Shown here in pieces: positions 19,231-56,588 of a stretch of 64,000 nucleotides of DNA. The translations under genes and the position numbers were made by a program. The DNA comes from Clostridiaceae bacterium BRH_c20a. Its GTDB lineage: Bacteria; Bacillota; Peptococcia; Peptococcales; BICA1-8. Within the stretch, counting starts at the first letter, position 1, and the number at the start of each line of letters is the position of its first letter. Where the stretch lies: assembly GCA_000961765.1 (NCBI GenBank), contig LADT01000019.1, positions 7,110-71,109 on the forward strand, read 5' to 3'. Below the pieces are notes generated by a model. That model made no database searches and was not told where the DNA came from. It was given only the letters and a program-made list of their open reading frames with translations.

Positions 19231-19458
19231 GAGGCTGAGGCTGAGGCTGAGGCTGAGGTTAAGGTTAAGGTTAAGGTTAAGGCTAAGGCTAAGGCTAAGG
19301 CTAAGACTAAGATTAAGATTAAGATTAAGATTAAGCTTCGCTAGAATATACTTTAAAAAATCTAACGGAATGAAATGCAGTGAAATCTTAATCTAACGAA
19401 GTGAAATCTTATTTTCTTTTCTTCTCAACCTCAACCTTAGCCTTAACCTAGCGAAGCG
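19231..19458. repeat. composite hexamer-array element with inverted arms
   Basis: 18 hexamers (19231-19338): GAGGCT x4, GAGGTT, AAGGTT x3, AAGGCT x4, AAGACT, AAGATT x4, AAGCTT. A spacer follows with AATCTAACGRARTGAAAT duplicated. The inverted arm is CTCAACCTCAACCTTAGCCTTAACCTAGCGAAGCG (19424-19458). Confidence 0.95.
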
Positions 19459-19535
19459 GAGGTGTTACTATCAAAGAGAGAATTCTTTCTGCCTTTCTGG
19501 AGATTTCCAGGACCAAAGGCTTTTATAGGCTGACC

Positions 19536-20042
19536 ATGGATGAACTAGCGGCTGAGGCTGGCTTGAGCAAACGTACTCTTTATCGGTATTTCCGCAGCAA
19601 GGATGAAATAATTGAAGCTGCACTGGATAAGTTTATGGGGGAAGTGGCTTTAAAGATCGAAGAATTTGTTTCCACCCAGCACAGGCCAGATGAAATCATG
19701 GCCCACATGTTGCACAACATATTACTTCATGTAGGGCGGATAATTAACAATCCTCTGGTACTGGAGGATTTACGCAAGCATTATCCCCATTATTGGAAAA
19801 AGATTGATGACTTTCGCATGGAAAAGGCCCAGCACATCATCAAGAGTAAATTTTTTATGGATGACAAAAATAAGGCTTATATTAGGGATATTGATCCCCG
19901 CATTGTGACAACTGCAGTATTAGCCGCTGTCCAGGCAGTAGCCAATCCCGAATTTATCATTACCAATGGCTTGACCTTCGAAGTAACTATCAAGCAGCTA
20001 ATGGAGTTTTTACAATACGGTTTCATGAAAGAAGAAAAATAA
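19536..20042 (+). CDS. TetR-family transcriptional regulator (annotated from first ATG; homology extends upstream)
   Basis: ELAAEAGLSKRTLYRYF HTH. The in-frame upstream codons IKERILSAFLEISRTKGFYRLT (19470-19535) encode helix 1 but no ATG/GTG/TTG precedes them. Confidence 0.85.
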   Translation: MDELAAEAGLSKRTLYRYFRSKDEIIEAALDKFMGEVALKIEEFVSTQHRPDEIMAHMLHNILLHVGRIINNPLVLEDLRKHYPHYWKKIDDFRMEKAQHIIKSKFFMDDKNKAYIRDIDPRIVTTAVLAAVQAVANPEFIITNGLTFEVTIKQLMEFLQYGFMKEEK

Positions 20043-20066
20043 AAAGGATGACTTATTATTTCGGTA

Positions 20067-22193
20067 TTATTTATACTTGCACAATACTGCTTTAATGGCA
20101 AAGTAGTCTACTTCTGCCGGTAGACTTTCTTTAATGGGCTTTAAATACTCTCCACCTACTGTCTTTATAGCTTGCAAAATTAGATTTTCATATTCTTGCG
20201 GGATAAGGGCATCAAGGTTTACCGCCAGTCCTTCTAGAGCGCATTGAATAATATGATTTTGAGTAGTAATCAAGGTTAGCTCTCTTTGCCGGGCGATTTC
20301 CTCTAAAGGTAACCCTGTTTGATACAATTCTAAAGTTAATAAATGGCTTGGTGTTTTATCAATTTTCTTCTTGATCTTAGTGGTTTCGTTAGCCTCTTTT
20401 GTTATATTTCGTGATATATTGTTTTCCTCAGCATACTTTCTGATTTGGGCTAAAAACACATCCCCATATTTTTGCAGTTTATTTTCTCCTACGCCTTTAA
20501 TCTTTAATAAAGCATGGGCATCTTGTGGGTAAAATTTACTCATTTCCTTCAAAGTACTATCAGGGAAGATAATGTAGGGAGGTACGTTTTCCTTATTAGA
20601 GATATCTTTACGTAATTGTCTAAGTAGTTCGAATAAGGAATTATCCTCTGGTAGCCTTTCTCTTTTCTTTTGCACCTTTTGGTAGACCTTTTGATCATTT
20701 TTAAGAACCGCTAAGGCTTTTTCTTCAATTTTTACGACAGGGTACTGCCCTTCAGTCAAACTAAGATAACCATCAGCTACTAAGAGGTTGATTATATCCC
20801 TAATTTCCTTTTCTGTAGCTTCAGTCATAATTCCATAAGTAGATAGGCGGTCACAGTTTAATTCTAGGACTTTTTTATTTTTTGATCCTTTAAGAACCTG
20901 GGCAATAAAGGTGCTGCCATATCTTTGTTTGAGGCGAATAATACAAGAGAAAATTTTCTGTGCATCAACGGTGATATCTACTAAATCGCTATCATCAGTA
21001 CATGTAGAGCAATTTCCACAATCTCCCGGCACATCCTCTTCGCCAAAGTATTCCAGAATAAATTTACGAAGGCAGCTTGGGGTATAACAATAATCTATAA
21101 TTTCTTGCAGCTTTTTATATTCATTACTCTTTCTTTCCGGGGAGGTGACCGATTGTTCAATCATGAATTTTTGCAGCAGGATGTCTTGGGGACCAAATAG
21201 GAGAATACATTGACTAGGCTCACCATCTCTGCCAGCCCGCCCTGCTTCTTGATAATAAGCCTCCACATTTTTTGGCAGATTATAATGAATTACAAATCTG
21301 ACATTGGATTTATCAATGCCCATTCCAAAGGCGTTTGTTGCCACAATTATATTATTATTATCAAAAAGGAAAGCTTCCTGATTTTGTTTTCTCTCTTCTG
21401 TACTAAGTCCTGCATGGTATTTTGTAGGATTAAAGCCGGCAAGGGACAATTCTTTATAGATGCTTTCTACTTCTTTCCGGGTTGCAGCATAAATAATCCC
21501 TACCTGGTCTCTATTGTTTCTGACATAGTCTAAAACGTAATCCCTTTTATTTTCCCCTCTAACTACGGATAAAAAAAGGTTTTCACGGTTAAAGCCGGTA
21601 ATATAAATATTGGGTTTATTAAGTGTTAATAAATTAACCACATCTTTTTTTACTTCCTCAGTTGCGGTTGCAGTAAAAGCACCAATTATTGGCTTTGTGG
21701 GCAATTCTTTAATAAAGTCAGGAATGTGGCGATAGCTGGGTCTAAAATCATGACCCCATTGGGATACACAATGGGCTTCATCCACAGCTACAAAATCTAT
21801 TTGTAAATTGCTGATAAGGGAAGCAAAGCCTGCAGATTCTAATCTTTCAGGAGCAATATATAATAATTTATACTTTCCTTGCTTTACTTGATAAATTCTT
21901 TTTTCTGTTTCTGCAAAGCTTAAGGAACTATTTATAAAAGTAGCGGGTATTCCCATATTTTCAAGGGTATCTACCTGGTCCTTCATTAGGGAAATCAAGG
22001 GGGAGATGACCAGTGTTACTCCTTCTAATAATAGAGCCGGTATTTGATAGCACAGTGACTTACCAGCACCTGTAGGCATAATCACAAAGGTATCCTGCTT
22101 TTTTAGGATACTCATTATAATTTCCTCTTGCCCTTTCTTAAAATTATGATAGCCAAAATATTTCTTTAATATATCCAGTACTTTTGTATGCAT
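20067..22193 (-). CDS. recQ: ATP-dependent DNA helicase RecQ
   Basis: 708 aa; MPTGAGKSLCYQIPALL, VAVDEAHCVSQWGHDFRPSY, Zn-binding Cys cluster, C-terminal HRDC-like region. Confidence 0.96.
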   Translation of the reverse strand: MHTKVLDILKKYFGYHNFKKGQEEIIMSILKKQDTFVIMPTGAGKSLCYQIPALLLEGVTLVISPLISLMKDQVDTLENMGIPATFINSSLSFAETEKRIYQVKQGKYKLLYIAPERLESAGFASLISNLQIDFVAVDEAHCVSQWGHDFRPSYRHIPDFIKELPTKPIIGAFTATATEEVKKDVVNLLTLNKPNIYITGFNRENLFLSVVRGENKRDYVLDYVRNNRDQVGIIYAATRKEVESIYKELSLAGFNPTKYHAGLSTEERKQNQEAFLFDNNNIIVATNAFGMGIDKSNVRFVIHYNLPKNVEAYYQEAGRAGRDGEPSQCILLFGPQDILLQKFMIEQSVTSPERKSNEYKKLQEIIDYCYTPSCLRKFILEYFGEEDVPGDCGNCSTCTDDSDLVDITVDAQKIFSCIIRLKQRYGSTFIAQVLKGSKNKKVLELNCDRLSTYGIMTEATEKEIRDIINLLVADGYLSLTEGQYPVVKIEEKALAVLKNDQKVYQKVQKKRERLPEDNSLFELLRQLRKDISNKENVPPYIIFPDSTLKEMSKFYPQDAHALLKIKGVGENKLQKYGDVFLAQIRKYAEENNISRNITKEANETTKIKKKIDKTPSHLLTLELYQTGLPLEEIARQRELTLITTQNHIIQCALEGLAVNLDALIPQEYENLILQAIKTVGGEYLKPIKESLPAEVDYFAIKAVLCKYK

Positions 22194-22383
22194 AAATTTA
22201 CTCCTTTAAAAGATAATTAAATAACAATGTTAGACAAAGATACCATTAATGCCTCTTTTTTTTGTGATATATATTAAGTTAATTTACACATTTACTTTGA
22301 CATTGGCGAAAGGTGGGAGTTTAATGTTAAAGTAGAGAAAATAGAATAATATTTACAGATAAGCTTAAGGGAAGGGATGTTTT

Positions 22384-23253
22384 ATGAAAATAATTGATGC
22401 CCATCTTCATTTTTCTAACAGAGAGGGCTTGAAGAAAACTTCTAGGGAAATTTCCCAAATAGATTATAGTGCTAAAGGGCTAGGAAAGGAGTTTAGAGAA
22501 GGAAATGTAGTTGCCGGAGTTGTTATGAATACACCTGGACGAGACCCTTATGAATCCTTCGATCATTCAATGGAATTAGCTCTGGAGGATGGAACTCTAG
22601 ATTGCTTGCTCTCTTGCGTTGGAGTTAATCCGATAGAGCTGCAAAAGGGTAGTCGAGAATTGTTTATTATTGAAGAAGAACTTACAAAGATTTGGACAAC
22701 AGGTATTAAAATATATGCAGGATACTTTCATTATTACGTTTATGATCCAATCTATGACCCTATATACGAGCTTGCAAAAAAATACAAGGTTCCTGTTGCC
22801 ATCCATTGTGGGGATACCCAATCAGCGCAAGGTCTATTAAAATATTCCCACCCTCTAACTATAGATGAGCTGGCAGTAAATCATCCGGATCTAAATTTTA
22901 TTATTTGTCACTTGGGGGTTCCCTGGGTTATGGACACAGCTGAACTAATCCTAAAAAATCCCAATGTTTATGCAGATGTATCAGGGCTTATTGCAGGAAA
23001 CAAAGAACAAGTGCTACGGATGAAGGATACAAGGTTATATGTTGAGTTAATCCAGCAGGGCTTAGTATACGCCAATCGATATGACAAAATTCTATTCGGA
23101 TCAGACTGGCCCCTTGTGCCCATTGCCCCCTATGTTGAATTTATTAAAGATATAATTCCTGTAGAATACCATGAGGATGTATTTTTTAATAATGCCCTTA
23201 ATGTCTTTCCCAAAATGAAGTACATTATCAAATCGCTAGATGAACAAAAATAA
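22384..23253 (+). CDS. amidohydrolase-family (TIM-barrel metal-dependent) hydrolase
   Basis: 289 aa; MKIIDAHLHF start and later HCG / FGSDWP motifs. Confidence 0.75.
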   Translation: MKIIDAHLHFSNREGLKKTSREISQIDYSAKGLGKEFREGNVVAGVVMNTPGRDPYESFDHSMELALEDGTLDCLLSCVGVNPIELQKGSRELFIIEEELTKIWTTGIKIYAGYFHYYVYDPIYDPIYELAKKYKVPVAIHCGDTQSAQGLLKYSHPLTIDELAVNHPDLNFIICHLGVPWVMDTAELILKNPNVYADVSGLIAGNKEQVLRMKDTRLYVELIQQGLVYANRYDKILFGSDWPLVPIAPYVEFIKDIIPVEYHEDVFFNNALNVFPKMKYIIKSLDEQK

Positions 23254-23328
23254 GCCCCTCTTAAAACAGGGCTTATTTTTTTATAAATCAAAACCATAAA
23301 ATTAGTTTAAAAAAGTTCTTAATTAATA

Positions 23329-23381
23329 TTGACAAATAATCAATTAGGTAACATATTACTTATAAAGGTAATATATTACCT
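23329..23381 (+). promoter_or_regulatory. promoter with two tandem palindromic boxes (MarR operator candidate)
   Basis: TTGACA (23329-23334, mistaken for a TTG start in the ORF track); near-palindrome GGTAACATATTACT (23347-23360); perfect 14-bp palindrome GGTAATATATTACC (23367-23380). Confidence 0.6.
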
Positions 23382-23397
23382 AATCAGGGGGGATTTT

Positions 23398-23862
23398 ATG
23401 GATAGAGATGATATTCTTGAAAAACAAAAGCTTATATTTGGCAGCATTTTTTTACTATCAAATAAATTACAGGTAATAATGGACCGTGATTTAGCAAGAT
23501 ATGATTTGACTGCAAAACAATGGTTTTTGACAGCAATAATGGAGGAGTTCTTTAATAGCCCGCCTACTCTAAGTGAATTAGCAGAGGCAATGGGTAGTAC
23601 CCATCAAAATGTGAAACAAATTGCCCTTAAACTTCAAAAAAGGGATCTATTAGAAATGCAAAAAGACGAAAAGGACCGTAGAGCAACTCGATTGAAGCTA
23701 ACAGAGAAAAGTTATGCCTTTTGGGATAAAAGGCAGGAGCAAAGTAAAAGTTTTCTAAATGAGTTTTTTGAAGACCTAAGCGAAGAAGAATTAAATATAA
23801 TGTGTTATGGATTAAATAAGCTATATGAAAAGTTGCTAAAATTGGGAGAAACGCAGAAATAA
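23398..23862 (+). CDS. MarR-family transcriptional regulator
   Basis: 154 aa from ATG 23398 (SD GGGGGG); LTAKQWFLTAIM, PPTLSELAEAMGSTHQNVKQIALKL, DRRATRLKLTEKS. Confidence 0.88.
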   Translation: MDRDDILEKQKLIFGSIFLLSNKLQVIMDRDLARYDLTAKQWFLTAIMEEFFNSPPTLSELAEAMGSTHQNVKQIALKLQKRDLLEMQKDEKDRRATRLKLTEKSYAFWDKRQEQSKSFLNEFFEDLSEEELNIMCYGLNKLYEKLLKLGETQK

Positions 23863-23897
23863 TCTCATTAGAAAAAAACATATTTAGGGGGGTTGGG

Positions 23898-24374
23898 ATG
23901 AGTACGTTAATTGTTTATTCAACCAAGTACGGCTGTGCTCAGAAGTGTGCGCAAATGCTTTCGGAAAAATTAAACGGCAAAGTTGATTTATGTAATTTGA
24001 AAACTTCCAAGGCTTTAGATCCTGCAGCATATGATAAAGTGGTTATTGGTGGCTCAATATACATAGGTAAGGTTCAAAAAGAAGTAAGCCGTTTTTGTTC
24101 AGATAATAGGAGTATCTTAAAAGATAAAACCATAGGACTATTCATCTGCGGAATGTTTAAAGATCAAGCTGAGAAGGAATTAAAGGATTCTTTTCCTTTA
24201 GAAATTTTGAATAATGCTGTTGCCAAGGAATTCTTGGGAGGAGAATTTGTTTTTAAAAAAATGAATCCTGTTGAAAGGCTCATGGTCAAGAGGATAGCTA
24301 AGGTAGATAAAGACTTAACAGATATTTCGGAGGAAAATATTAATAGGATCGTACAGTCCATGAATAATATATAA
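23898..24374 (+). CDS. flavodoxin-like protein
   Basis: 158 aa; LIVYSTKYGCAQKCAQ N-terminus typical of flavodoxin/HemG-like proteins. Confidence 0.7.
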   Translation: MSTLIVYSTKYGCAQKCAQMLSEKLNGKVDLCNLKTSKALDPAAYDKVVIGGSIYIGKVQKEVSRFCSDNRSILKDKTIGLFICGMFKDQAEKELKDSFPLEILNNAVAKEFLGGEFVFKKMNPVERLMVKRIAKVDKDLTDISEENINRIVQSMNNI

Positions 24375-24412
24375 AAAATTAAAGATTAAAGATATGAGGG
24401 GAAGGATTTATC

Positions 24413-25294
24413 ATGAAAACTCAAAGAATAATTACGTTACTAGTTTTATGTATTGTAGTATTTTCATTAGTTGCAACTGCAGCCGGCATATTCTCCAATG
24501 AGGGTCCGGGGCCATATGAGCATACATCTGTTCGCGGTGAAACAGTATTAATTTATGGAAACGGCATTTATCAGCATATGTCTGCAGAAGTAGCTCCCCA
24601 AGGAATTGCTCAGGATGTTATCACAATGTTTTTAGGTATACCCTTACTTTTAATAGGGCTTTACTTTTCACAAAAAGGATCACTTCGAGGCAGAATACTT
24701 TTGGCAGGGACTTTGGGGTATTTTTTGGTTACATACCTTTTTTACTTGGTTATGGGTATGTTTAATAAAATGTTCCTGGTTTATGTAATTCTCCTTTCAA
24801 CTAGTTTCTTTGCTTTTTTTCTAACAATATTCTCATTTAATATAGGGAATTTAAGTACCCGCTTTCATGAAAAAACACCTGTCAGATTTGTGGGGGGGGT
24901 TCTCATCTTTAATACAATTTCTATTGCCCTACTGTGGCTGCAAGTAGTTGTACCACCACTGTTAAAAGGAGAGATTCCTAAAGATGTTGAACATTATACA
25001 ACTTTGATTGTTCAGGGCCTCGATTTGTCAATTCTTTTACCTCTAGCATTTTTATCTGGGGTGCTTTTAATCAAGAAAAGACCCTTGGGATATTTAATGG
25101 CACCGGTTTATATCGTCTTTTTATCAATTTTAATGACTGCACTTACAGCAAAAGTCATTGCCATGAATGGAGGTTTTCCGGTGTTGATTATAATTCCTTT
25201 AATTAATTCAATAACAATCTGGTGCTCGGTGCTGGTTATAAAAAATATCAAGGGGCAAATCCATAACGATATTGGTAATTCCCGTTGGGTTTAA
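24413..25294 (+). CDS. membrane protein, unknown function
   Basis: 293 aa, about 8 hydrophobic segments, SD GAGGGGAAGG. Confidence 0.7.
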   Translation: MKTQRIITLLVLCIVVFSLVATAAGIFSNEGPGPYEHTSVRGETVLIYGNGIYQHMSAEVAPQGIAQDVITMFLGIPLLLIGLYFSQKGSLRGRILLAGTLGYFLVTYLFYLVMGMFNKMFLVYVILLSTSFFAFFLTIFSFNIGNLSTRFHEKTPVRFVGGVLIFNTISIALLWLQVVVPPLLKGEIPKDVEHYTTLIVQGLDLSILLPLAFLSGVLLIKKRPLGYLMAPVYIVFLSILMTALTAKVIAMNGGFPVLIIIPLINSITIWCSVLVIKNIKGQIHNDIGNSRWV

Positions 25295-25300
25295 AGTAAA

Positions 25301-25346
25301 AGCGACAAGAGGTAGGTCCACAGGTCCACCCTCTGTCGCTTTTTTC
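25301..25346 (+). terminator. Rho-independent terminator
   Basis: AGCGACAAGAGG / CCCTCTGTCGCT stem followed by T6. Confidence 0.7.
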
Positions 25347-25406
25347 TTTCTCTTTTTGTTGTATAATATATTGGTAAAGAATAGAAATAGCCAAAGGAGC
25401 TTAAGG

Positions 25407-26222: not shown

Positions 26223-26224
26223 GG

Positions 26225-27037: not shown

Positions 27038-27056
27038 TGGTTGAAAGGGGTTTACT

Positions 27057-31517: not shown

Positions 31518-31563
31518 AGTTTCTCTTAGCGGAACAAGTTAAAAAAAAATGAGGGCATTAATA

Positions 31564-31827
31564 ATGTATTTTATTTATATTCTAGAGTGTAAAGATGGTA
31601 CTCTTTACACTGGATGGACAACTAATATTAAAGCTAGAATAGAAAAACATAACCAAGGCAAAGGTGCTAAGTATACCCGACCACGACTTCCGGTTACTCT
31701 AAGATATTATGAAGTATTTGAAACAAAGACGGAAGCTATGCAAAGAGAGGCATTAATTAAAAAAATGACAAGGATAGCAAAATATACATTAATAGAAAGT
31801 AAACCCTTAAAAGATGACATCTCTTAA
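31564..31827 (+). CDS. GIY-YIG nuclease family protein
   Basis: [39 protein letters not shown]; ATG 31564 has SD GAGGG 7 nt upstream. Confidence 0.88.
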
Positions 31828-34638: not shown

Positions 34639-34649
34639 TAACCCCTGCA

Positions 34650-34682
34650 GGTTAAGGTTAAGGCTGAGGCTGAGGTTAAGAA
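34650..34682. repeat. short hexamer array between folE and folP
   Basis: GGTTAAGGTTAAGGCTGAGGCTGAGGTTAAGAA; followed by TGTCAGACGCA / TGTCAAGACAC words (34722-34764). Confidence 0.9.
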
Positions 34683-34764
34683 GAAAACAATATAGATTTC
34701 GCTGTGATGACACCAAAGGATTGTCAGACGCATAATTTTTACCCTTAAGGAGTTGTCAAGACAC

Positions 34765-37678: not shown

Positions 37679-37700
37679 AGGACGATAGAGCATAGATGCG

Positions 37701-37838
37701 AATTTAGAAATGTAGAATGTAGAATGTAGAAATTTAGAATTTAGAATTTAGAATGTAGAATGAAAAATTTAAAATGAAGAAAACACGAACCCTTTAGGGA
37801 CACATTCATAGACCATAGACCATAGATTATAGAGATAG
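37701..37838. repeat. composite heptamer-array element (TAGAATK array - unique core - CATAGAC array)
   Basis: 8 TAGAAT(G/T) units (37705-37762), core GAAGAAAACACGAACCCTTTAGGGACACAT (37776-37805), CATAGAC-type units (37807-37838). Confidence 0.95.
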
Positions 37839-37847: not shown

Positions 37848-37873
37848 AAAAGCCTGCAGAAGCAGGTTTTTTT
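37848..37873 (+). terminator. Rho-independent terminator
   Basis: AAAGCCTGC-AGAA-GCAGGTTTT followed by a T-run. Confidence 0.75.
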
Positions 37874-40966: not shown

Positions 40967-41428
40967 GTGAGTTTTGAGGAACGAATTAAAGAATTGGGAC
41001 TTGAGTTGCCGGAAGCACCTAAACCGGTAGCAGCATATGTACCTGCTGTTTTAGTTGATAAATATATCTATACTTCTGGGCAAATTCCTTTTGTTAATGG
41101 TGAATTAAAGTTTAAAGGAAAAATAGGCCAAGAGCTAAACGAGCAAGAAGGATATGAAGCTGCAAAGGTTTGTGCTTTAAACTGTTTAAGTGTAATAAAA
41201 AGTGTTATAGGTGATTTAGACAAAATAGACCGGGTTATAAAAGTAAATGGCTTTGTAGCCAGTGCGGCAGGTTTTAATATGCAGCCTAAGGTAATAAATG
41301 GTGCATCAGAGTTAATAGGTCAAATATTTGGTGATCAAGGACAGCATGCCCGCGCAGCGGTAGGAGTAAATGAGCTGCCTTTAGATTCTGCCTGTGAGGT
41401 TGAGATGATAGTAAAGATTAAAGGTTAA
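40967..41428 (+). CDS. RidA/YjgF-family enamine/imine deaminase
   Basis: 154 aa from GTG 40967 (SD AAGGAGG 7 nt upstream); YTSGQIPF, ARAAVGVNELPLDSACEVEMIV. Confidence 0.85.
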   Translation: MSFEERIKELGLELPEAPKPVAAYVPAVLVDKYIYTSGQIPFVNGELKFKGKIGQELNEQEGYEAAKVCALNCLSVIKSVIGDLDKIDRVIKVNGFVASAAGFNMQPKVINGASELIGQIFGDQGQHARAAVGVNELPLDSACEVEMIVKIKG

Positions 41429-41590
41429 GGTTAAGGTTGAGGTTGAGATTAAGGTTGTCTATAGTCTATAGTCTATAGTCCATAGTCCATAGTCCATAGT
41501 CAGGACCACTAATAGTAATAAATAAATGATTAGTCACTAGCCACGGTACTGTAATTCACCAGTCACCAGTCACTAGTAACTAGTCACTAA
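41421..41590. repeat. composite array element upstream of the PLP gene
   Basis: AAGGTT-type hexamers x6 (41421-41456), GTCTATA x3 + GTCCATA x3 (41457-41498), TCACCAG TCACCAG TCACTAG TAACTAG TCACTAA (41556-41590). Confidence 0.95.
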
Positions 41591-41611: not shown

Positions 41612-43072
41612 ATGAGTCCAAAATATAAATTTCAAATGTATAAAGAGCTGCATGCCAAAACTGGGGAGATATATGCCGATGCTGCTAAAGCTGCAGACGA
41701 AATAGGTATACCTAAAGATATTAGAGGAACTTTTGGTTTAACTGGTGCTATCTCAGGTTGTCCCGCACCTTTAAGAAGGGATATTTTAGAGGCAGGGGAA
41801 AAAGGTGCTGTTGAAGTAATACCTCTTGCTAAGTTAATGGACGAGATTAGGGAAGTTGTAAAAGATGTCTATGGCGATGAGTGGGAAGCTGCTGCTACAA
41901 GTACTTGTGAAGCTACTCTTTGGACTTCCTTTGATGCGTTGTTTACACCTCCCATGCAGGGCAGGGGTGATAATTACAGAGCCAGGTACATAGCTCCCTA
42001 TGAAAAGCATTTACATCACCAGGGTGGTTATGGTCGACCATTTCCCGGAAAATATAAGGATATGTTTGCTGACAGAGGCTCAACAGCTGGAGAACTAGGC
42101 TTCCACGGCAAAAGGCAAAATAATCTTGATGCGGTATTTGTTCCTTTAGAAGGAGCTAAATATGAAGTTCACGGTATTAAGCAGTGGCCAGTACCTTTGC
42201 TGTCTGAAGTTGATCCCGAAGCTTCCATTGAAAGTATTGCTTTACATGCGGAGATTCACGAAGCTATGCTTACAGGCTTCACCTCCTTAGGCTATCCATC
42301 CCCAGGTTATGGATATAGTGCTCAGGATGAAGAGGGTACTCCTTTACTGTGCAAATATATTGCTGAGTTAGCTCATTCCTACAATGTTCCTTATGTTATA
42401 GATAATGCTTGGGGATTGCCCTTTGTTGGTATTAATCCTGCTAAAATTGGCTGTGATGTAATTACATATAGTATGGATAAGGCTACAGGCGCTGCCACTA
42501 GCGGTTTGATTATTGGTAAAGAAGAACCAATGGTACAAATTCGCAGAGCTTTAGGCATGCATGGTGACCGTTGGGGAACCCCATCCTCCTATGGCAAAGC
42601 TGCTTATGTAACCTTTGACCCAGGTAAAGAGGCTCTCTTAACTCAGCTCCAGGCTCTGAAGGTATTAAGAGATACACCAGAAGTATTGACAAAACCCGTT
42701 GATGACCTATATGAAATAGTTGTAGAGGAATTTAACAATATTCCGGCGAAGTTTAAAGACGGAATTAAAATTACTAAGGTTTATAATTCTACTGCAATTG
42801 AAGTTAACTATGAAGGTACTTGGAAAAATGGACAAATGGGTATTCCTATTTTCTCTATTGAAGATATGTATTCAGGAACAAACCTCTTACAGACTGGTAT
42901 GACTAAATTCGGTGTTATACCAACAATTGCCTATGATGCAAACATCTATATTTCACCTGGTTTAGGTACCTGTGATGAAGAAGGACAGTTAATTCCTGAA
43001 AAGACTCGTTATGCTGTTAAAGCTTTAGTTAAGCTAATTGAAATAGTTTGCAAACATGCAGGAGTACTTTAA
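41612..43072 (+). CDS. SelA-like fold-type-I PLP-dependent enzyme
   Basis: 486 aa; VIDNAWG then ITYSMDKATGAATSGLIIGKEE (Lys290, nt 42479-42481) parallels the SelA SGDKLLGGPQAGIIVGKKE Schiff-base region. Confidence 0.7.
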   Translation: MSPKYKFQMYKELHAKTGEIYADAAKAADEIGIPKDIRGTFGLTGAISGCPAPLRRDILEAGEKGAVEVIPLAKLMDEIREVVKDVYGDEWEAAATSTCEATLWTSFDALFTPPMQGRGDNYRARYIAPYEKHLHHQGGYGRPFPGKYKDMFADRGSTAGELGFHGKRQNNLDAVFVPLEGAKYEVHGIKQWPVPLLSEVDPEASIESIALHAEIHEAMLTGFTSLGYPSPGYGYSAQDEEGTPLLCKYIAELAHSYNVPYVIDNAWGLPFVGINPAKIGCDVITYSMDKATGAATSGLIIGKEEPMVQIRRALGMHGDRWGTPSSYGKAAYVTFDPGKEALLTQLQALKVLRDTPEVLTKPVDDLYEIVVEEFNNIPAKFKDGIKITKVYNSTAIEVNYEGTWKNGQMGIPIFSIEDMYSGTNLLQTGMTKFGVIPTIAYDANIYISPGLGTCDEEGQLIPEKTRYAVKALVKLIEIVCKHAGVL

Positions 43073-43078
43073 TTAATA

Positions 43079-43281
43079 ACTGGTGACTAGTTGCTAGTTG
43101 CCAGTTGCTAGGTAAACATAGTGCTGCAGTGCTACAGGTAAACCTAGGTTGAGGATTTGCTTCGCTAGGCTAAGGTTTCGCTTCGCTAGGTTAAGGTTGA
43201 GAAAAAGGCTTTAATATTTATCTTTTTAACCTTAACCTTAACCTTAACCTTAACCTTATTTATAAATTTAACCTTAGCCTT
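43079..43281. repeat. composite array element downstream of the PLP gene (mirror order)
   Basis: ACTGGTG ACTAGTT GCTAGTT GCCAGTT GCTAGG (43079-43113, reverse orientation of the TCACYAG family); GCTTCGCTAGG + AAGG words; AACCTT x5 (43228-43257); AACCTTAGCCTT (43270-43281). Confidence 0.95.
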
Positions 43282-47894: not shown

Positions 47895-47913
47895 TATTGA
47901 GCAATGAAAACTT

Positions 47914-47937
47914 AAAAAACGCCCTAGGGCGTTTTTT
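47914..47937. terminator. bidirectional terminator
   Basis: AAAAAACGCCC-TA-GGGCGTTTTTT between convergent genes; overlaps the minus-strand stop codon. Confidence 0.85.
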
Positions 47938-48751: not shown

Positions 48752-48841
48752 AGATTATCACCTTTCTTTTTAATGAATCTGCAATTCATGATATGCTTCT
48801 ATAGAAAAAAAGGTGATAAATATTATTGAAGGTGTGTCCCC

Positions 48842-49270: not shown

Positions 49271-49285
49271 TATTTTTTCGCCCCT

Positions 49286-49780: not shown

Positions 49781-49800
49781 TCAGAATCATGTCAATAGTT

Positions 49801-49839
49801 AATAGACCATAGACAATAGACCATAGACCATAGGCTATG
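49801..49839. repeat. CCATAGA-type heptamer array
   Basis: AATAGACCATAGACAATAGACCATAGACCATAGGCTATG between two minus-strand genes. Confidence 0.9.
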
Positions 49840-49843
49840 ATTG

Positions 49844-50458: not shown

Positions 50459-50643
50459 TGAACATCACCTTGTTTAGTTTAGTAGAAATCTATAATACAA
50501 TATGTAATAAATACTTTTTACGTCACAAAAAATGGATTCTCTTTTATACTTTAAGCTAAGTTTATTCACCACCAGGCAAGTCAAGAACCGTCCCTAATTG
50601 CGCCTAAACTCGCCCACTTGCCCACTTTTAGACTCCCTAGACT

Positions 50644-51474
50644 TTATACAATTATTCCAATTACCCCAAAACCGCCATGGGTTCCAAATACAGGACCTAG
50701 ATCTGTGATAATTAATTCTTTTGGGTTTAGATTAGTAGTTATCTCTTTTATAATGTGATTTATTTCGTCCTCTTCAGAGGAATGGGCAATACCAATTACC
50801 GTGGAGGAAAAATCCATTTTGGTATTCTTAACTAACTCTAAGAGTCTTTTAATTGCTTTTTTTCGTCCTCTTATTTTCTCAGAGTTCCCCAGGGTACCGT
50901 CAGGCAGGGTACTCATAACCGGTTTGATACTTAAGAACTGGGCAATACCTCCCTCCCAGGGTTTAACCCGTCCACCTTTTACTGCATTTTCCAGAGTATT
51001 TAGGGTAAAGTAGGCTATCATTTCTGAACGATATTTAAGTATGGCTTCTTTAATTTCTTGAAGTGACTTGCCCCTCTCAGCTAAACGGCAGGCCTCTATA
51101 ACTTGCATGCCTATACCTATGCTGATATTTAGCGAGTCGATTACTTCTACTTCAAAATCTACCATAGCTTTGGCTAAAACAGCGCTCTGATAAGTACCAC
51201 TAAGGCCGGAGGATAGTGTAATGCAAAGGACGGGACCACGACTATGTGCCCTTTGGAAAGCTTCAACAAAGGCCTGAGGTGTTGGCTGTGAAGTTTTAGG
51301 CAGCCCTTTGGTAGCTGCCATTTTTTCATAAAAGTCGGGGGTAGTTATTTCAATTCCATCTAAATAAACTTCATTACCAAAAATAATGCTGAGTGGTACA
51401 ATTTCAATGTTGTATTCATCTATTATATGTTGCGGGATATCTGCGGCAGTATCGGTTACTAACTGCACTCTCAT
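50644..51474 (-). CDS. DegV-family fatty-acid-binding protein
   Basis: MRVQLVTDTAADIP..; ATG 51474 has SD GGGGTG 6 nt upstream. Confidence 0.88.
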   Translation of the reverse strand: MRVQLVTDTAADIPQHIIDEYNIEIVPLSIIFGNEVYLDGIEITTPDFYEKMAATKGLPKTSQPTPQAFVEAFQRAHSRGPVLCITLSSGLSGTYQSAVLAKAMVDFEVEVIDSLNISIGIGMQVIEACRLAERGKSLQEIKEAILKYRSEMIAYFTLNTLENAVKGGRVKPWEGGIAQFLSIKPVMSTLPDGTLGNSEKIRGRKKAIKRLLELVKNTKMDFSSTVIGIAHSSEEDEINHIIKEITTNLNPKELIITDLGPVFGTHGGFGVIGIIV

Positions 51475-51627
51475 AAAAATCACCCCTTGAAAATATTTGC
51501 TTGTAACAGTTTATCTCTTATATTTGCTAACTTTTCTTAAAATCCTGCCTAGAAATAAATCAAACGGTATTAAAAAGGATATAGGATAGTGATATAATAG
51601 AGCAAAATCTATACTAGGAGGGTTTTT

Positions 51628-51918
51628 ATGGAAATCTTACTTAACGATAAATTAAAAGATTATTTAAAGGATAAAAAAAGTAAACAAATCATTATCAATA
51701 GCATTTCCACAAAAGTATGCTGTGGAGGTGTATCTCTGCCTGTTGCTAAAATAGGCCAACCGGATAGTAATAGAGGTTATTACCATTTTCATTTAGCTGA
51801 TAATGTTGAGGTCTATGTTCAAAAAGGAATAGAAGCTAAGAATAATAAGCTTTTTTTAAATTTAAAAAATTTTCTAATTTTTAAGGATATTGAGGTTGAG
51901 GGTGTAAAGCTTCTTTAG
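51628..51918 (+). CDS. small CC-motif protein (HesB-like layout), tentative
   Basis: 96 aa; adjacent cysteines in STKVCCGGVSLP; SD AGGAGG. Confidence 0.5.
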   Translation: MEILLNDKLKDYLKDKKSKQIIINSISTKVCCGGVSLPVAKIGQPDSNRGYYHFHLADNVEVYVQKGIEAKNNKLFLNLKNFLIFKDIEVEGVKLL

Positions 51919-51957
51919 AGAAGTTAGAAGGATCATATATTTAGGAGGTGTGATTAT

Positions 51958-52289
51958 ATGAAGAATATTATTAAAGCAAACTCAAGAATGGGGAAACAGT
52001 AGTAGGTTCAATCATATCTGTTAATTCTCCTGATATTGTGGAAGTATATGACTTATCACAATCTTTAGGAATTCCCGGTCAAATGGGTCATCCTTTGTTG
52101 GAAGAAAAAATAGTATGGTCATTAGATGTTATAAAGGAGGCAGGATTAATAGCGGGGATTTTTACCAGTAGTTTTGTTGAGGATGCACAACAAAGAATTA
52201 AACAGGGTTTTCGATATATTTTATATAGTATGGATACTATTATGCTTAGTAAAATAGCCCGATCTGAACTGAGTCGGCTTAGAAATTAA
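51958..52289 (+). pseudogene. HpcH/HpaI-family aldolase remnant (frameshift plus internal deletion)
   Basis: ATG 51958 with SD AGGAGG reads MKNIIKANSRMGKQ-stop. A shifted frame gives SKLKNGETVVGSIISVNSPDIVEVY joined directly to DLSQSLGIPGQMGHPLLEEKI..., the C-terminal third of the fold. About 150 aa of the barrel are missing. Confidence 0.75.
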
Positions 52290-52384
52290 AGAATTGATTT
52301 ATTAATCCAATAAACAGGATTAATAAAAAAAATGTCGAATTTTATTTAGGATAATTTTAGTAAATTTTTAGGAGGAGTTAATTT

Positions 52385-53809
52385 GTGAAAAGGATCCAGA
52401 AAAATATGAATTTGTTTTTCCTTTTAGGCACAAGTATTTTGGCAATAGTAGGTTTGATATTTTTAAGTATTGCCAGCCAATTGATATGGTTAAAATATGC
52501 CAGTTTGGTAGGGGTCGTATTTGTAGTTATCTATAATTTATACCTGTATAAGTTCCTTTTTCACCCAGTAAAACTTATGACTGATACATTGGAAGAGGTG
52601 GAAAATGGTAAGGTTGGTACACGCAATAGGAATACAAACCTAATAAAGTGTTGGCAGGAATTAAATTGTCAGAAAAATGACTGTGTAGGCTATGAAAATG
52701 AAAATTTACGATGCTGGGAGTTAACTGGAACTCGATGTAAAGACCAAACTAAAGACCAAACTCAGGGAACCATTGTGGAAAAACTAAAGGAATGTAAAGA
52801 CTGTGTTGTTTATAATAAATCAGCTAAAGGTGAAATTGGAAATATGGCAAGGCTTTTGGATAATATATTGGCTATTACTGGCGGAGTATTGGCCCAGATA
52901 AAATTCTCCTCCCAGGAGCTGGGTCAAGTAAATCAGGCTTTAGGTGTGAGCTCTAAGGCTTCTCTTTCTGCAACTAAAGAAATAAACAGTTCTTTGGGGG
53001 AAACTGCAAAAATGACAACTAATCAGGTTTCCGCTGCGGAAGATATGCATCATTTTGCAAATAAACTTGCGGAGATTGTTTATAATCTGGACGTTAACTC
53101 TCAAGATATTACAAATTTTTGCCAAGAAACAAGTAAGGATAATGCTAAGGTAGCCTCGTCTGTTAATAATTTGTTGGTTAATGCTGGTGAAACCAAAAAA
53201 TATGCTGATCATACAGTGGAAAAGATGACGGCGTTACGGGATAAATCAGGTGCTATTAATACTATAGTATCTACAATAAATAATATTGCAGATCAAACCA
53301 ATCTTTTAGCTCTAAATGCCAGTATTGAGGCTGCTCGGGCTGGAGAGCATGGGCGGGGTTTTAGTGTAGTTGCTGAGGAAATACGAAAGTTATCGGAAGA
53401 GACAGCAAAGTCTGTTACTGAGATAAAGGGTATAGTCATCGGTATGGGTAATGAAATGGATGAGACGATAAAAGTAGTAAATTCTACTATGGGTATTATT
53501 GAGGTGCAAAATAATAAGATAAATGAGACCGGAACATATTTTAGAACAATGGAAGCAAAGGTGAACCAAGTTGTAAATAACATTAATAATTTACGTAACA
53601 GTATAGAATTGATAGAAAAGGAGCAGAAGGGTTTTTTAGTAAAAATAGAAGAAGTAGTATCGGTTTCCGAAGAAATAACTGCGGCTACTCAGGAAATTCT
53701 AGGTAGTACCCAAGATCAGGAAGATGGCCTAACTGTTGTTGGAGAGCAGATTGGTAGACTGGATAAAGTAATTAAAGAATTGGATACATATGCTCGTTTT
53801 TTTAAATAA
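52385..53809 (+). CDS. methyl-accepting chemotaxis protein with Cys-rich (two CW) module
   Basis: 474 aa, GTG start; two N-terminal TM helices; [34 protein letters not shown]; signalling domain [37 protein letters not shown]. Confidence 0.9.
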
Positions 53810-53888
53810 ACATTAAATAATTGTTAACTTTTAATTAAAAGCGGAATTAAACGTTTGAATTACATCTTATTATCTCCATATAATGATA

Positions 53889-53938
53889 TTGACAGTACTA
53901 CAGAACATATGGTATATTTACATTACCCCTGGGGGGTA
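53889..53938 (+). promoter_or_regulatory. promoter with GC-tract palindrome (CsoR/RcnR-type operator architecture)
   Basis: TTGACA-N18-TATATT, then TACCCC-T-GGGGGGTA (53924-53938) over the predicted transcription start. Confidence 0.5.
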
Positions 53939-53964
53939 TAATAAATATAAGAGGTGTCCAGGTA

Positions 53965-54150
53965 ATGAAAATTAATATTAATAAAAACAGATGCCCGCAG
54001 AATCATAGATGTCCTTCCGTGAAAGTTTGTCCCACGGGTGCTATTATCCAAAAGGGCAATAATTGTCCAGAAATTGATGAAGAAAAATGTATCAGTTGTA
54101 CTAAATGTGTTAGCTATTGCCCTATGCAAGTTTTTAAACTTGCTATTTAA
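53965..54150 (+). CDS. small 4Fe-4S ferredoxin-domain protein
   Basis: 61 aa; CPQNHRCPSVKVCP and CISCTKCVSYCP cysteine clusters. Confidence 0.75.
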   Translation: MKININKNRCPQNHRCPSVKVCPTGAIIQKGNNCPEIDEEKCISCTKCVSYCPMQVFKLAI

Positions 54151-54193
54151 TATGATGGGGACACCATTGTCCCAGGTATAACACCCTCTTCCC

Positions 54194-54221
54194 AGACCTG
54201 TTGAGTGCAGGTCTTTTTTTT
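54194..54221 (+). terminator. Rho-independent terminator
   Basis: AGACCTG-TTGAGTG-CAGGTCT followed by T8. Confidence 0.85.
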
Positions 54222-54265
54222 ATCTAAAAACTCTGATAAGCTAACAATAGTCTAAAAACATAACT

Positions 54266-54329
54266 AAGGTTAAGGTTGAGGTTAAGAAATATTTAACCTT
54301 AACCTAGCGAAGCGAAACCTTAACCTTAT
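54266..54329. repeat. hexamer-array hairpin element
   Basis: AAGGTT AAGGTT GAGGTT AAG - AAATAT - TTAACCTTAACCTAGCGAAGCGAAACCTTAACCTTA. Confidence 0.95.
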
Positions 54330-54336
54330 ATTTGGG

Positions 54337-56235
54337 GTGGATAGCTTGATTGTATTGCAAGGAAAAAACTTAACCAAGTCCTATGGGGTTGAAACAGTTT
54401 TTGAAGACGTAAGCTTTATTATCACCGAAGGGGAAAAAATAGGCTTAGTGGGACCAAACGGGGCTGGTAAAACAACTTTGTTTCGCTGTTTAACAGGAGA
54501 AGAGCATTTGGGCGGAGGAGAAGTTACCATAGGTAACAAATACACCATGGGCTATCTCGAACAAATTCCTAATTACCCTCTAGGGACCGCTCTTATGGAT
54601 TGTGTTTTGGATAGCTTTGCCGACGTTTTCCAAATGCGGGATCATTTACGGAGCCTAGAAAAAGAAATGGGAGAAAGGTCAGGCAAGGACCTGGATAAGC
54701 TATTAGATAAATATAGTCTGTTAACCCATGAATATGAAGAAGCTGGCGGCTTCAGCTGTGAGGCAATTGCCCGTCGTATTATAAAGGGGCTAGGGTTTAA
54801 AGATGAGGATTTGAATAGGGATGTCAATACCTTTAGCGGCGGGGAAAAAACCAGAGCGGGCTTAGCCCGACTTTTAGTACGGGAGCCGGATCTCCTGCTT
54901 TTAGATGAACCTACAAATCACTTGGATTTACAAGCTTTAGAATGGCTGGAGTCATTTCTCAAGACCTATCGGGGTGCGGTATTTTTAATATCCCATGATC
55001 GTTATTTTCTTGATGAGGTAGTGAACAAAGTCTTTGAGCTTGATAATAAACAACTAAAAACTTTCTCTGGTAACTACAGTAAATATTTAGTATTAAAAAA
55101 AGAACAGGAACTGGCCCAAGCAAAGGCTTATGAAAAACAGCAGAAGGAAATACAAAAAATAGAAGAGTATATATTGAAATATAAGGCAGGTATAAAGTCC
55201 AAACAAGCCCGGGGAAGGGCCAGCCAATTATCAAGACTTGAGAGAATTGAAAAGCTCCCTGGGCAAAATTCTTTTGAACTTAAAGCTGGTGCACCAGGAG
55301 AAACAGGAGATATTGTTCTGCAGGCAATAGAGTTAGAGATGGCTTATGATGGGACGAAACTTTTTTCCGGGCTTAACGTCAATATATATAAAGGAGAAAA
55401 GGTGGCTTTAATTGGCGGTAATGGCACAGGCAAATCAACAATTTTAAAGCTAGCAACAGGTAGCCTTTTACCTAAACAAGGACTAGTTACTCTAGGTTCC
55501 CGGGTAAAAGTGGGATATTTTGACCAAGAGCATAAAAACCTGGATAAAAATAAAAGGGTTATCGATGAAATTATGGATAATTACGCCTTGAATGAAGGGC
55601 AAGCCCGAAACAAACTGGCTCAAGTTCTTTTTCAGGATGAGGATGTTTTTAAAAAAGTGGCTGATTTAAGTGGGGGCGAGAAAGGTCGATTATCTATCTT
55701 AAAGATTATTCTTGATGAGCCAAACTTTTTGATCTTAGATGAGCCTACTAATCACTTAGATATTTCTTCCCAAGAAGCTGTTGAGGATTTTTTAAGCGAT
55801 TTTCCCGGTACACTCTTGATTGTCTCCCATGATAGATTTTTGTTAGAAAAGATTACCCAGCGAACCTTAGAGTTAGAAAAGGGAGTACTGAATAATTACT
55901 TAGGCAGCTATTCCTATTACAAAGAAAAAAAGGATGAACTTCAGCGGCTTAAGGATGAGGAACAAAATCAGAAAGTAAAGGTGACTGTTAAAGTCCAGGA
56001 GAAACCAAAAGTCAATAAATCCAAGCTTAGGGAAGAAATTAAGAACTTGGAGGTAAAAATTCAAAGCTTAGAACAGTTTAAAGAAACTCTAAGTGGAGAA
56101 TTAGCTGATCCTAATACCTATCAAGATGAAGAAAAAAGCAGACTAAAAGTAGCAGAGTTTAAAAGAACAGAAGAAGAACTGCCAATGTTATATGAAGAAT
56201 GGGAAAGACTATGTATTATACTGGAAGAAGCATGA
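54337..56235 (+). CDS. ABC-F family ATPase (two NBDs, no TM domain)
   Basis: 632 aa; GPNGAGKTT and GGNGTGKST, two LSGGE signatures, charged linker and C-terminal coiled coil. Confidence 0.93.
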   Translation: MDSLIVLQGKNLTKSYGVETVFEDVSFIITEGEKIGLVGPNGAGKTTLFRCLTGEEHLGGGEVTIGNKYTMGYLEQIPNYPLGTALMDCVLDSFADVFQMRDHLRSLEKEMGERSGKDLDKLLDKYSLLTHEYEEAGGFSCEAIARRIIKGLGFKDEDLNRDVNTFSGGEKTRAGLARLLVREPDLLLLDEPTNHLDLQALEWLESFLKTYRGAVFLISHDRYFLDEVVNKVFELDNKQLKTFSGNYSKYLVLKKEQELAQAKAYEKQQKEIQKIEEYILKYKAGIKSKQARGRASQLSRLERIEKLPGQNSFELKAGAPGETGDIVLQAIELEMAYDGTKLFSGLNVNIYKGEKVALIGGNGTGKSTILKLATGSLLPKQGLVTLGSRVKVGYFDQEHKNLDKNKRVIDEIMDNYALNEGQARNKLAQVLFQDEDVFKKVADLSGGEKGRLSILKIILDEPNFLILDEPTNHLDISSQEAVEDFLSDFPGTLLIVSHDRFLLEKITQRTLELEKGVLNNYLGSYSYYKEKKDELQRLKDEEQNQKVKVTVKVQEKPKVNKSKLREEIKNLEVKIQSLEQFKETLSGELADPNTYQDEEKSRLKVAEFKRTEEELPMLYEEWERLCIILEEA

Positions 56236-56269
56236 TTTTACATTCAGAGCAGCGGGATGTAAAAAGAGT

Positions 56270-56588
56270 GTGTCCAGTGCCCAGTGCTCAGTGCTCAGGA
56301 AATGACAGTACTTCAGGGATAGAATTTTGCGTCTGACATACACAACGGTAATATTATTGGTCTGACAATACTTCCGGATGAATATCGTGCGTCTGACACA
56401 AGCATTGCATGTCTATTCTGTAGACGATAGACGATGGACACGAAATTAAAATGTAGAATTGTAGAATTTAGAATTTAGAATGGAGAAAACACGGACCATT
56501 AGGGTTACATGAATAATAAGAAATAAGATTAGAGACCATAGACCATAGACCATAGACCATAGACCATAGACCATAGACCATAGACTAG
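56270..56588. repeat. large composite repeat element
   Basis: CAGTGCY x3 (56275-56295); TG(C)GTCTGACA x3 at about 30-nt spacing (56328, 56358, 56388); TAGACGA x2; TAGAATK x4 (56454-56482); core GAGAAAACACGGACCATTAGGGTTACAT (56483-56510); GACCATA x7 (56534-56582). Confidence 0.95.

Follow-up and report, generated by a model that had tools for sequence, protein, structure and literature searches.

What are the tandem arrays of six- and seven-nucleotide words that fill at least eight intergenic gaps between positions 19231 and 56588 of a 64,000-nucleotide stretch of Clostridiaceae bacterium BRH_c20a (contig LADT01000019.1, positions 7,110 to 71,109; this whole stretch is called the window, and coordinates refer to it), and by what process did they come to be there? 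A description made from the letters alone (the sequence-only reading) had regarded them as a distinct class of intergenic element, possibly mobile or driven by slippage. The analysis reported here points to a different placement: the arrays are probably 6- and 7-nt long simple sequence repeats (LSSR) that arose by slippage, that proliferated in one Peptococcaceae-like clade, and whose orientation has been filtered by gene expression. Confidence in that answer is high as to what the arrays are and how they change, and low as to what they do.

Arrays were detected with Tandem Repeats Finder and with a separate period scan, and all eight gaps were also read directly. The two scans agreed that period-6 (RAGRYT) and period-7 arrays (units TAGAATK, CCATAGA, GTCYATA, TCACYAG, CTAGTTG, CAGTGCY and TAGACGA) are present at all eight gaps; the claim of word arrays at these sites is borne out by both scans and by shuffle controls, and each word of the original list was found. 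The hexamer dimer pattern RAGRYTRAGRYT matched 34 times against 0.99 expected, a count reached in none of 100 shuffles, and arrays of at least three units numbered 14 and covered 493 nt, where 60 block shuffles averaged 0.87 arrays (16 nt) and never exceeded three. The anchor word GCTTCGCTAGG was present in four exact and two one-mismatch copies (one in an array gap), against 0.58 expected, and the word GCGTCTGACA in three exact copies confined to two gaps. Only at 34650-34764 did the described extent require correction, in that the array occupies approximately 31 nt (34649-34680) and the remainder of the gap is not array. All genuine 6/7-nt arrays fall outside long open reading frames (ORFs), in agreement with their description as strictly non-coding; a period-6 match at 6065, within an ORF, was rejected as in fact a period-3 run. 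In some assemblies, gene callers placed spurious small ORFs of 39-42 aa into array gaps (L002 11575-11703, L005 8672-8791), by which the arrays add low-complexity peptides to protein databases; as a practical matter, array gaps break or confuse gene callers.

The segment from 31612 to 53072 is 100% identical to contigs of four other assemblies and differs from a fifth at two positions. These assemblies are ENA and JGI metagenomes made from distinct samples with distinct pipelines, the samples being porewater from the Mont Terri Opalinus Clay (PMC5067608), and because independent metagenome assemblies give identical bases, the arrays are not artefacts. Nor are they confined to the window: a contig reaching ~6.5 kb beyond its end (L204) contains two further hexamer-hairpin gaps of like architecture, and related arrays are present on unlinked contigs of sister genomes. 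Both of the circumstances named in advance as fatal to the description are thereby excluded. Searches for tRNA and Rfam families (the latter at gathering score) returned no match in the window; an Rfam search at E<=1 over 19-57 kb was likewise empty, and five sister loci also gave no Rfam match.

Comparisons between strains and species showed that arrays appear, lengthen, shorten and give way to others at the same sites, through slippage-type change of whole units within transcribed spacers. A proposed comparison of array lengths between strains gave a clear result at 56531, where five assemblies carry an (AGACCAT) array of ~8 units and two carry one of ~4; of the two with the short form, one is otherwise identical in haplotype, and the alleles differ by exactly four units. 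Between two strains compared over 8.7 kb, four of 12 differences lie within array gaps, which make up ~5% of the sequence, and at 49802 a strain variant displays a single-nucleotide polymorphism within the array and a 14-nt insertion nearby. The closest genome is a metagenome-assembled genome (MAG), 'Peptococcaceae bacterium BICA1-8' (97% amino-acid and ~88% nucleotide identity; orthologous locus L125), in which the (ATAGACC) array has ~2.5 units against 4.6 in the window, and the uniformity of units in orthologous arrays also differs. Within the array at 19231 the unit variants form a perfect stepwise gradient, with five differences between adjacent units, where 100,000 shuffles averaged 22.6 and never fell below eight; such a pattern is diagnostic of local duplication following point mutation. 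The four-unit allele difference, the differences in copy number between sister species and this gradient together uphold the suggestion that the arrays are driven by slippage.

Turnover at fixed positions is equally evident. The junction upstream of the ABC-F gene is occupied by a hexamer hairpin in the window, by (CCCACGGG)n in BICA1-8 and by (CTAGTCA)n in a third species, and the content of the folE-folP gap is wholly different in BICA1-8. In outgroups the junctions between the genes for a RidA-like protein, a pyridoxal-phosphate (PLP) enzyme and a GidA-like flavoprotein measure 15-35 nt and hold a ribosome-binding site only; because they are so short, the spacers of 180-280 nt found here represent secondary expansions inside the operon, and the claim that arrays sit within operons holds, with hairpins that are not terminator-like. 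Sister species also harbor period-8 arrays, (GGAAAGTT)7 and (CCCACGGG)2.5, and, in the Sod_Cu/MntP gap (366 nt, against 63 nt in the window), a unit of ~115 nt that is built of heptamer arrays and is itself tandemly duplicated; together these repeats lie at L234 2495-2859 and 7121-7181 and at L231 5944-5969. Higher-order repeats therefore form from arrays. The arrays can also serve directly as strain-typing markers in subsurface metagenomes.

The elements present in the gaps, with the neighboring features that define their position, are the following.

19229..19338, plus strand: hexamer array of 17-18 units, starting 7 nt past the ABC-2 permease stop and forming the 5' arm of a long hairpin; unit order GAGGCT x4, GAGGTT, AAGGTT x3, AAGGCT x4, AAGACT, AAGATT x4, AAGCTT.
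19335..19345, plus strand: anchor variant GCTTCGCTAGA, closing the hexamer array.
19366..19390, plus strand: unique block CGGAATGAAATGCAGTGAAATCTTA, with a second copy, reverse-complemented and nested in an anchor, ~1.9 kb past the window end.
19424..19457, minus strand: 3' arm TCAACC TCAACC TTAGCC TTAACC plus CTAGCGAAGC (reverse anchor), adjoining the ribosome-binding site of the TetR gene.
34649..34680, plus strand: five RAGGYT hexamers right after the folE stop, at the folE-folP junction, with no inverted partner; the gap is unstructured.
34722..34731, minus strand: lone GCGTCTGACA word upstream of folP, an inverted copy.
37700..37781, plus strand: (TAGAATK) array of ~11 units, a module inside an (ATAGACN) array in the 3' untranslated region of a TraB-like gene; not at the L125 ortholog.
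37779..37805, plus strand: module core GAAAACACGAACCCTTTAGGGACACAT, unique.
37807..37838, plus strand: (CATAGAC) array of ~3-4 units, with an intrinsic terminator behind it at 37848-37871.
41421..41456, plus strand: six G-rich RAGRYT hexamers that run over the RidA stop, in stop-proximal position; missing in L125.
41457..41501, plus strand: (GTCYATA) array of 6.4 units.
41556..41590, plus strand: leader array of five units (TCACCAG, TCACTAG, TAACTAG), ending ...CACTAA 5 nt from the ribosome-binding site of the PLP-enzyme gene; kept in L125.
43087..43111, plus strand: trailer array (CTAGTTG) of 3.6 units, 14 nt past the PLP-gene stop and complementary to that gene's leader array.
43144..43198, plus strand: 5' arm with the 21-nt unit GCTTCGCTAGGYTAAGGTTnn, in 2-2.6 copies against one in L125; it holds the 28-36 nt anchor block.
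43226..43281, minus strand: 3' arm (TTAACC) x5.5 plus TTAACCTTAGCC.
49802..49835, strand unassigned: (ATAGACC) array between the minus-strand MntP and Sod_Cu genes.
54265..54286, plus strand: 5' arm of a hexamer hairpin, TAAGGTTAAGGTTGAGGTTAAG, between a terminator at 54194-54214 and the ABC-F gene.
54295..54329, minus strand: 3' arm AACCTTAACC-TAGCGAAGCGAA-ACCTTAACCTT, with the reverse anchor block; other arrays stand at this site in L231 and L234.
56270..56298, plus strand: (CAGTGCY) array of four units, following the ABC-F stop.
56329..56398, plus strand: three spaced GTCTGACA words, with GCGTCTGACA at 56329 and 56389 and GGTCTGACA between; two in BICA1-8.
56421..56487, plus strand: (TAGACGA) x2.7, then (TAGAATK) of ~5.6 units, the second copy of the module.
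56485..56510, plus strand: module core copy 2, GAAAACACGGACCATTAGGGTTACAT; missing in L231.
56531..56599, plus strand: (AGACCAT) array of eight units plus CTAGCCACTAAC, ending right before the ribosome-binding site of the thioredoxin gene.

Two peculiarities of individual gaps deserve separate mention. The hexamer array following the ABC-2 permease gene (19219-19338) is in frame with that gene, behind a double stop (TAA TAA), and lacks a start codon of its own; read-through would append the peptide (EA)4 EV (KV)3 (KA)4 KT (KI)4 KLR. Its in-frame position, which has a chance of 1 in 3, is probably a coincidence, and a read-through peptide was dropped as a candidate on account of the double stop. 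The GCGTCTGACA and GGTCTGACA words upstream of the thioredoxin gene are 8-10 nt long and spaced by ~27-34 nt rather than tandem, and the folE-folP gap of BICA1-8 (L125 3080-3260) contains five GATGCATC words at spacings of ~35-60 nt; such spaced words may be operators or iteron-like sites, or may belong to a different type of repeat.

A new result of this analysis is that the arrays are polar with respect to the stop and start codons along the mRNA strand. In the co-directional gaps of 13 loci, stop-proximal arrays are G-rich on the mRNA strand (RAGGYT, CTAGTTG, TAGTTAY, TTGTTGC, GACAGGA), and start-proximal arrays are C-rich and G-poor (AACCTY, TCACYAG, CCACTAG, CAACTAA, CCATAGA), with a Spearman rho of -0.65 (p 8e-6, 38 arrays); seven of eight further arrays, from newly fetched loci, agreed. 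A minus-strand gap conforms when read in the mRNA sense, with (UGGUGAC)n past the stop and (CUUUCAA)n ahead of the start, so that the polarity tracks transcription rather than the plus strand. In ~11 of 12 gaps, clusters of YMACYAR words stop 4-22 nt short of a ribosome-binding site, typically as ...CCACTAAC, and their reverse complements adjoin the stop codons of upstream genes. The most complete case is that of the PLP-enzyme gene (41612-43072), which is bracketed by a complementary leader and trailer with a predicted duplex energy of -50.6 kcal/mol (z -6.7); similar brackets, of -60.2 and -52.9 kcal/mol, occur in two paralogous loci of another MAG, and BICA1-8 and three other clade loci lack the bracket.

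Folding of the gaps delimited the claim that inverted arms form long hairpins, in that strong hairpins form in three of the eight gaps only. Strong folding is limited to hexamer elements with inverted arms: the element at 19222 (-76.7 kcal/mol, z -3.7), the composite at 43073 (-89 kcal/mol, z -4.05; -67 kcal/mol, z -8.0 for its ortholog in L125), the element at 54230 (-27.3 kcal/mol, z -2.8) and, beyond the window, a hairpin gap of L204 (z -3.1). Heptamer-only gaps are unstructured (z -0.2 to +3.4; mononucleotide shuffles were used for these gaps and for the comparison of sense and antisense strands). No T-run lies behind any array hairpin, so none has the form of an intrinsic terminator; true terminators stand beside arrays at 37848 and 54194. 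A separate long hairpin, GTCATCCTGAG...(AGCGAAGGATC...GATCCTTCG)...CTCAGGATGAC, which has no Rfam match and is missing from the window, is dispersed over several gaps of sister species (L231 8063-8139; L234 7329-7405; L130/L227 2457-2467), and its inner AGCGAAGG motif resembles the window anchor (CTAGCGAAGCGAA).

The distribution of the arrays was surveyed at 79 loci centered on homologues of a single window gene. Arrays of 6/7 nt are enriched only in ~10 related uncultured MAGs, and are absent at these loci from Sporomusa, heliobacteria, Desulfosporosinus and other groups. The vocabulary is partly common to the MAGs (TCACCAG, TCACTAG, CCACTAG) and partly specific to lineages within them (CAACTAN, TAGTTAY, GACAGKA, AGGAATT). 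Beyond the clade, exact (CTAGTCA)3 was found in 10 IMG/VR contigs and (CCATAGA)3 in two; several of these contigs, with GC contents of 32-57%, carry many other heptamer arrays, and two are genuine phage, encoding a prohead protease and a major capsid protein E identified by Pfam. One phage contig displays (UCACUAG)n 42 nt upstream of the start of the capsid gene, and the IMG/VR arrays are sense-oriented in eight of nine co-directional cases, six of which lie 22-42 nt from the next start. Words of the same kind (TCACTAG, AATTAGG, TAGAATA, TAAGAAK) flank a major capsid gene at L238 1282-2366 and 12963-13027 and at L241 3020-3135 and 4384-4410; a protein search with L238 returned metagenome proteins only, and tblastn against phages gave a weak match to a Burkholderia phage. 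A scan of viral contigs with RAGGYT x4 was set aside as too unspecific, having returned more than 119 unrelated matches that are probably coding repeats.

Under the slippage reading, these observations would be ordered as follows. Slippage would generate arrays inside transcribed intergenic spacers, including operon junctions that were ancestrally tight, and the short blocks beside the arrays may have spread by ectopic recombination or template switching between like arrays, with no dedicated transposase. A filter exerted by gene expression would then impose the polarity, such that near a ribosome-binding site only words poor in structure and unlike that site are tolerated or favored. C/A-rich words might serve as unstructured standby leaders and would also supply stop codons in all frames; their G-rich complements, which resemble ribosome-binding sites, would be restricted to positions near the stop. 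At meeting points of the two orientations, long intercistronic RNA hairpins with no U-tail would result, acting as REP/BIME-like (repetitive extragenic palindrome/bacterial interspersed mosaic element) stabilizers, processing sites or insulators and not as terminators. Structure-free C/A-rich leaders and intercistronic hairpins may be functional by-products of the process.

Several points weigh against this account. Slippage alone does not account for a vocabulary common to gaps, species and even unrelated phage contigs. Rapid turnover and strain polymorphism argue that single arrays are dispensable, and every functional step has been inferred for an uncultured organism. The arrays that define the polarity come from related genomes and are not fully independent, and nearly all of their contexts are on the plus strand, with one informative minus-strand gap. 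Selection on the stems at the RNA level is plausible, but the energies of sense and antisense strands show no consistent difference, such that the sense strand is not consistently the more stable, and RNA-specific selection through G-U pairs was dropped for that reason. Finally, the ~4-unit allele at 56531 might in theory reflect a collapse during assembly, which is improbable given k-mers (k127/k141) that exceed the 56-nt array in length.

A bolder construction of the same polarity would have the arrays constitute an orientation-specific intergenic 'grammar' that is read by the expression machinery, in which a C/A-rich word acts as a portable leader 5' of the ribosome-binding site, G/T-rich complements follow stop codons, the two pair into intercistronic or gene-bracketing stems (the PLP gene, with leader-trailer pairing of -50 to -60 kcal/mol in three genomes, being one example), and the code, such as (UCACUAG)n, has arisen convergently in, or spread horizontally to, distant bacteria and phages, positions upstream of major capsid genes included. 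Such a grammar, if true, would provide the functional explanation for cyanobacterial heptamer repeats that has been missing since 1990; it is regarded here as unlikely.

A related proposal, in which the arrays are multivalent platforms for a single-stranded RNA-binding protein (CsrA-, cold-shock-, S1- or Hfq-like) within a dedicated post-transcriptional system, draws on their strict orientation and their abutment on ribosome-binding sites, on a polarity that tracks transcription, on the recurrence of one heptamer at a like position in unrelated contigs and ahead of a phage capsid gene, and on two csrA paralogs in the window; hints of an effect on expression have come from Nostoc (bioRxiv 10.1101/2022.06.06.494920), and a role of this kind has been proposed for Beggiatoaceae (PMC4679880). 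A dedicated binding protein is difficult to reconcile with words that are numerous and freely swapped at one site between sister species, with copy numbers that are polymorphic within a species, and with downstream genes that are functionally unrelated; no protein was seen to co-vary with the arrays in the available data, and the proposal is accordingly considered doubtful. Several specific regulatory assignments were dropped in turn: TRAP-like arrays of NAG triplets (a 6-7 nt period misfits the 5-6 nt spacing), Rho utilization sites (the arrays are C-rich but have the wrong periodicity) and promoter phase variation (the arrays lie inside operons or 3' untranslated regions). CsrA binds a GGA motif, and its binding was dropped in view of array words that lack GGA.

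The possibility of mobility draws on short unique sequences that accompany the arrays and that have been copied between gaps. A block of 28-36 nt, TAAGGTTTCGCTTCGCTAGGTTAAGGTT(GAGAAAAA), is 97-100% identical in three gaps and persists as an 18-nt core in a fourth, in both orientations, and a 25-nt block has one copy nested within this anchor. A module of the form CGAAWTT-(TAGAATK)n-GAAAACACGRACCnTTAGGGnnACAT lies inside (ATAGACN) arrays at 37700 and 56440; neither orthologous site in BICA1-8 has it, so that its arrival at the two loci is recent. Composite gaps have a common module order, and the assertion that arrays occur in fixed combinations is correct for some modules, though not for the others.

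These features would be accommodated if the gaps contained non-autonomous mobile elements, akin to miniature inverted-repeat transposable elements (MITEs), REPINs or small dispersed repeats (SDRs), with a nuclease or transposase supplied in trans and arrays as parts of the elements or as their preferred targets. Alignments of filled and empty sites revealed neither terminal inverted repeats nor target-site duplication, the features by which a MITE would be recognized, and neither the genes called over ~70 kb here nor those of the sister loci include a transposase, RAYT or reverse transcriptase. Element lengths vary, moreover, in whole repeat units, and one site carries different arrays in different species. 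Sister-genome loci yielded no copy of the module core, and a scan of metagenome contigs with the core GAAAACACGRACC..TAGGG gave 20 chance matches, with flanks free of arrays, from a collection that evidently lacks the source organism. The term 'mobile' is thus borne out in part, by the copied blocks of 25-36 nt and the gain of the module, and is not matched by the machinery or termini of a transposable element; mobile elements of this type are considered improbable. Weakest of all, and to be dismissed, is the notion of an assembly or scaffolding artefact or a peculiarity of a single window, which has nothing specific in its favor beyond the general proneness of short tandem repeats to mis-assembly, and which is contradicted by (near-)identical sequence in five independent assemblies, by arrays shorter than the assembly k-mers, and by the arrays of sister genomes, of unlinked contigs and past the window end.

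Other genes of the window were recorded in passing. Positions 6511-6696 and 7044-7217, in a 1.27-kb 'gap', encode two small paralogs of CsrA, of 61 and 57 aa (Pfam E 1e-20), directly upstream of an unusually long flagellin of 1026 aa (7376-10456) that has Flagellin_N and Flagellin_C domains at its ends and a huge central region; the arrangement suggests a CsrA/flagellin regulatory module, and no contig on record was found to encode the 1026-aa flagellin ORF. By Pfam annotation of called genes, two toxin-antitoxin pairs, Gp49/HTH_3 and ParE/RelB, lie on the minus strand at 60780-62407. The cluster encoding the RidA-like protein, the 486-aa PLP enzyme (window 41612-43072; its only match is a weak one, to Pfam aminotransferase class V), the GidA-like flavoprotein and a B12-binding protein is present in two paralogous copies in each of BICA1-8, Bins.048 and Betzabe_MAG005 (paralogous loci L128-L130), and a stand-alone small protein with a GIY-YIG nuclease domain (92-94 aa) is encoded near both paralogous loci (window 31549-31827; L227 2571-2855).

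The placement of the arrays among known repeat systems can be approached by elimination. They are not CRISPR, as was originally stated, consisting of head-to-tail units of 6-7 nt with no cas genes among the called genes. With REP/BIME and REPIN sequences they have in common an intergenic position, often within operons, transcript hairpins that are not terminators, and many dispersed copies; REP, an element of Proteobacteria, is a fixed palindrome of ~20-40 nt moved by a RAYT transposase (PMC3116915), whereas the hairpin arms here are arrays of variable length. Given such variable arms, and given that most heptamer gaps lack folding, the denial of a REP-like single palindrome was also correct. 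The SDRs of Nostoc (Elhai et al. 2008, Genome Res 18:1484; cited in PMC3116915) are reportedly very short unique blocks, intergenic, in both orientations, sometimes nested and accompanied by tandem heptamers; against that description the window blocks are alike in length (~12-36 nt), dispersal, double orientation and nesting, and unrelated in sequence.

Closer parallels exist among tandem heptamers. Cyanobacteria are said to possess short tandemly repeated repetitive (STRR) sequences, attributed to Mazel et al. 1990. The STRR units are CCCCAGT (STRR1), TTGGTCA (STRR2) and CAACAGT (STRR3). Like the window arrays, they comprise several families of tandem heptanucleotides that are intergenic, lineage-specific and abundant, with a function that went unresolved for decades. 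Against this, the 317 kb of clade loci hold no tandem dimer of these STRR1-3 units, the host is a member of the Bacillota (its closest genomes being Peptococcaceae/Bacillota MAGs) and not a heterocystous cyanobacterium, and positional polarity and anchor-embedding hexamer hairpins are features for which no description was found in STRR. Heptamer repeats near promoters and start codons of Nostoc have been linked by experimental hints to modulation of expression (bioRxiv 10.1101/2022.06.06.494920).

The TAACTGA repeats of marine Beggiatoaceae, some Cyanobacteria and Bacteroidetes, which lie just upstream of start codons (MacGregor 2015, PMC4679880), resemble the window arrays in being tandem heptamers, overwhelmingly intergenic and forward-oriented, a few nucleotides upstream of a start or ribosome-binding site, as is also seen here; in occurring within operons, mixed with other heptamers in some genomes; in displaying strain insertions and deletions in 7-nt steps; and in a unit similar to TAACTAG, TCACTAG and CAACTAA. 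They differ in that TAACTGA is found here as 33 single copies and never in tandem (317 kb of clade loci), in that the present lineage has many units plus hexamers, complementary stop-proximal arrays and long hairpins, and in that a Gram-positive Bacillota host is not reported in PMC4679880. Literature searches likewise brought up no account of arrays like these in Firmicutes or Peptococcaceae.

The broadest of these systems is the LSSR class (Mrazek, Guo and Shah 2007), which PMC4679880 characterizes as tandem units of 5-11 nt, mostly 7 nt, that are sporadic in phylogeny and attributed to polymerase slippage. Against a criterion of tandem units of 1-11 nt that extend longer than chance in the given sequence the window arrays qualify, and they also share with LSSR copy-number change by whole units; LSSR form a statistical category with no grammar, whereas the window arrays have a common vocabulary, an order and a rule of orientation. 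Since arrays of 5-11 nt units are already a described kind, represented by LSSR, STRR and TAACTGA, the designation of a distinct element class cannot be retained: the window arrays belong to the LSSR-type kind, and have no membership in the TAACTGA or STRR1-3 sequence families. Tandem heptamer arrays have a record of over 30 years in cyanobacteria and of roughly ten years in giant sulfur bacteria, with no established function, and the window adds to them a third, unrelated host lineage, the deep-subsurface Gram-positive bacteria of the Opalinus Clay, in which unit-number alleles, turnover at fixed junctions, polarity and recurrence in phages lead to testable hypotheses of a standby leader, an all-frame stop barrier and intercistronic stems.

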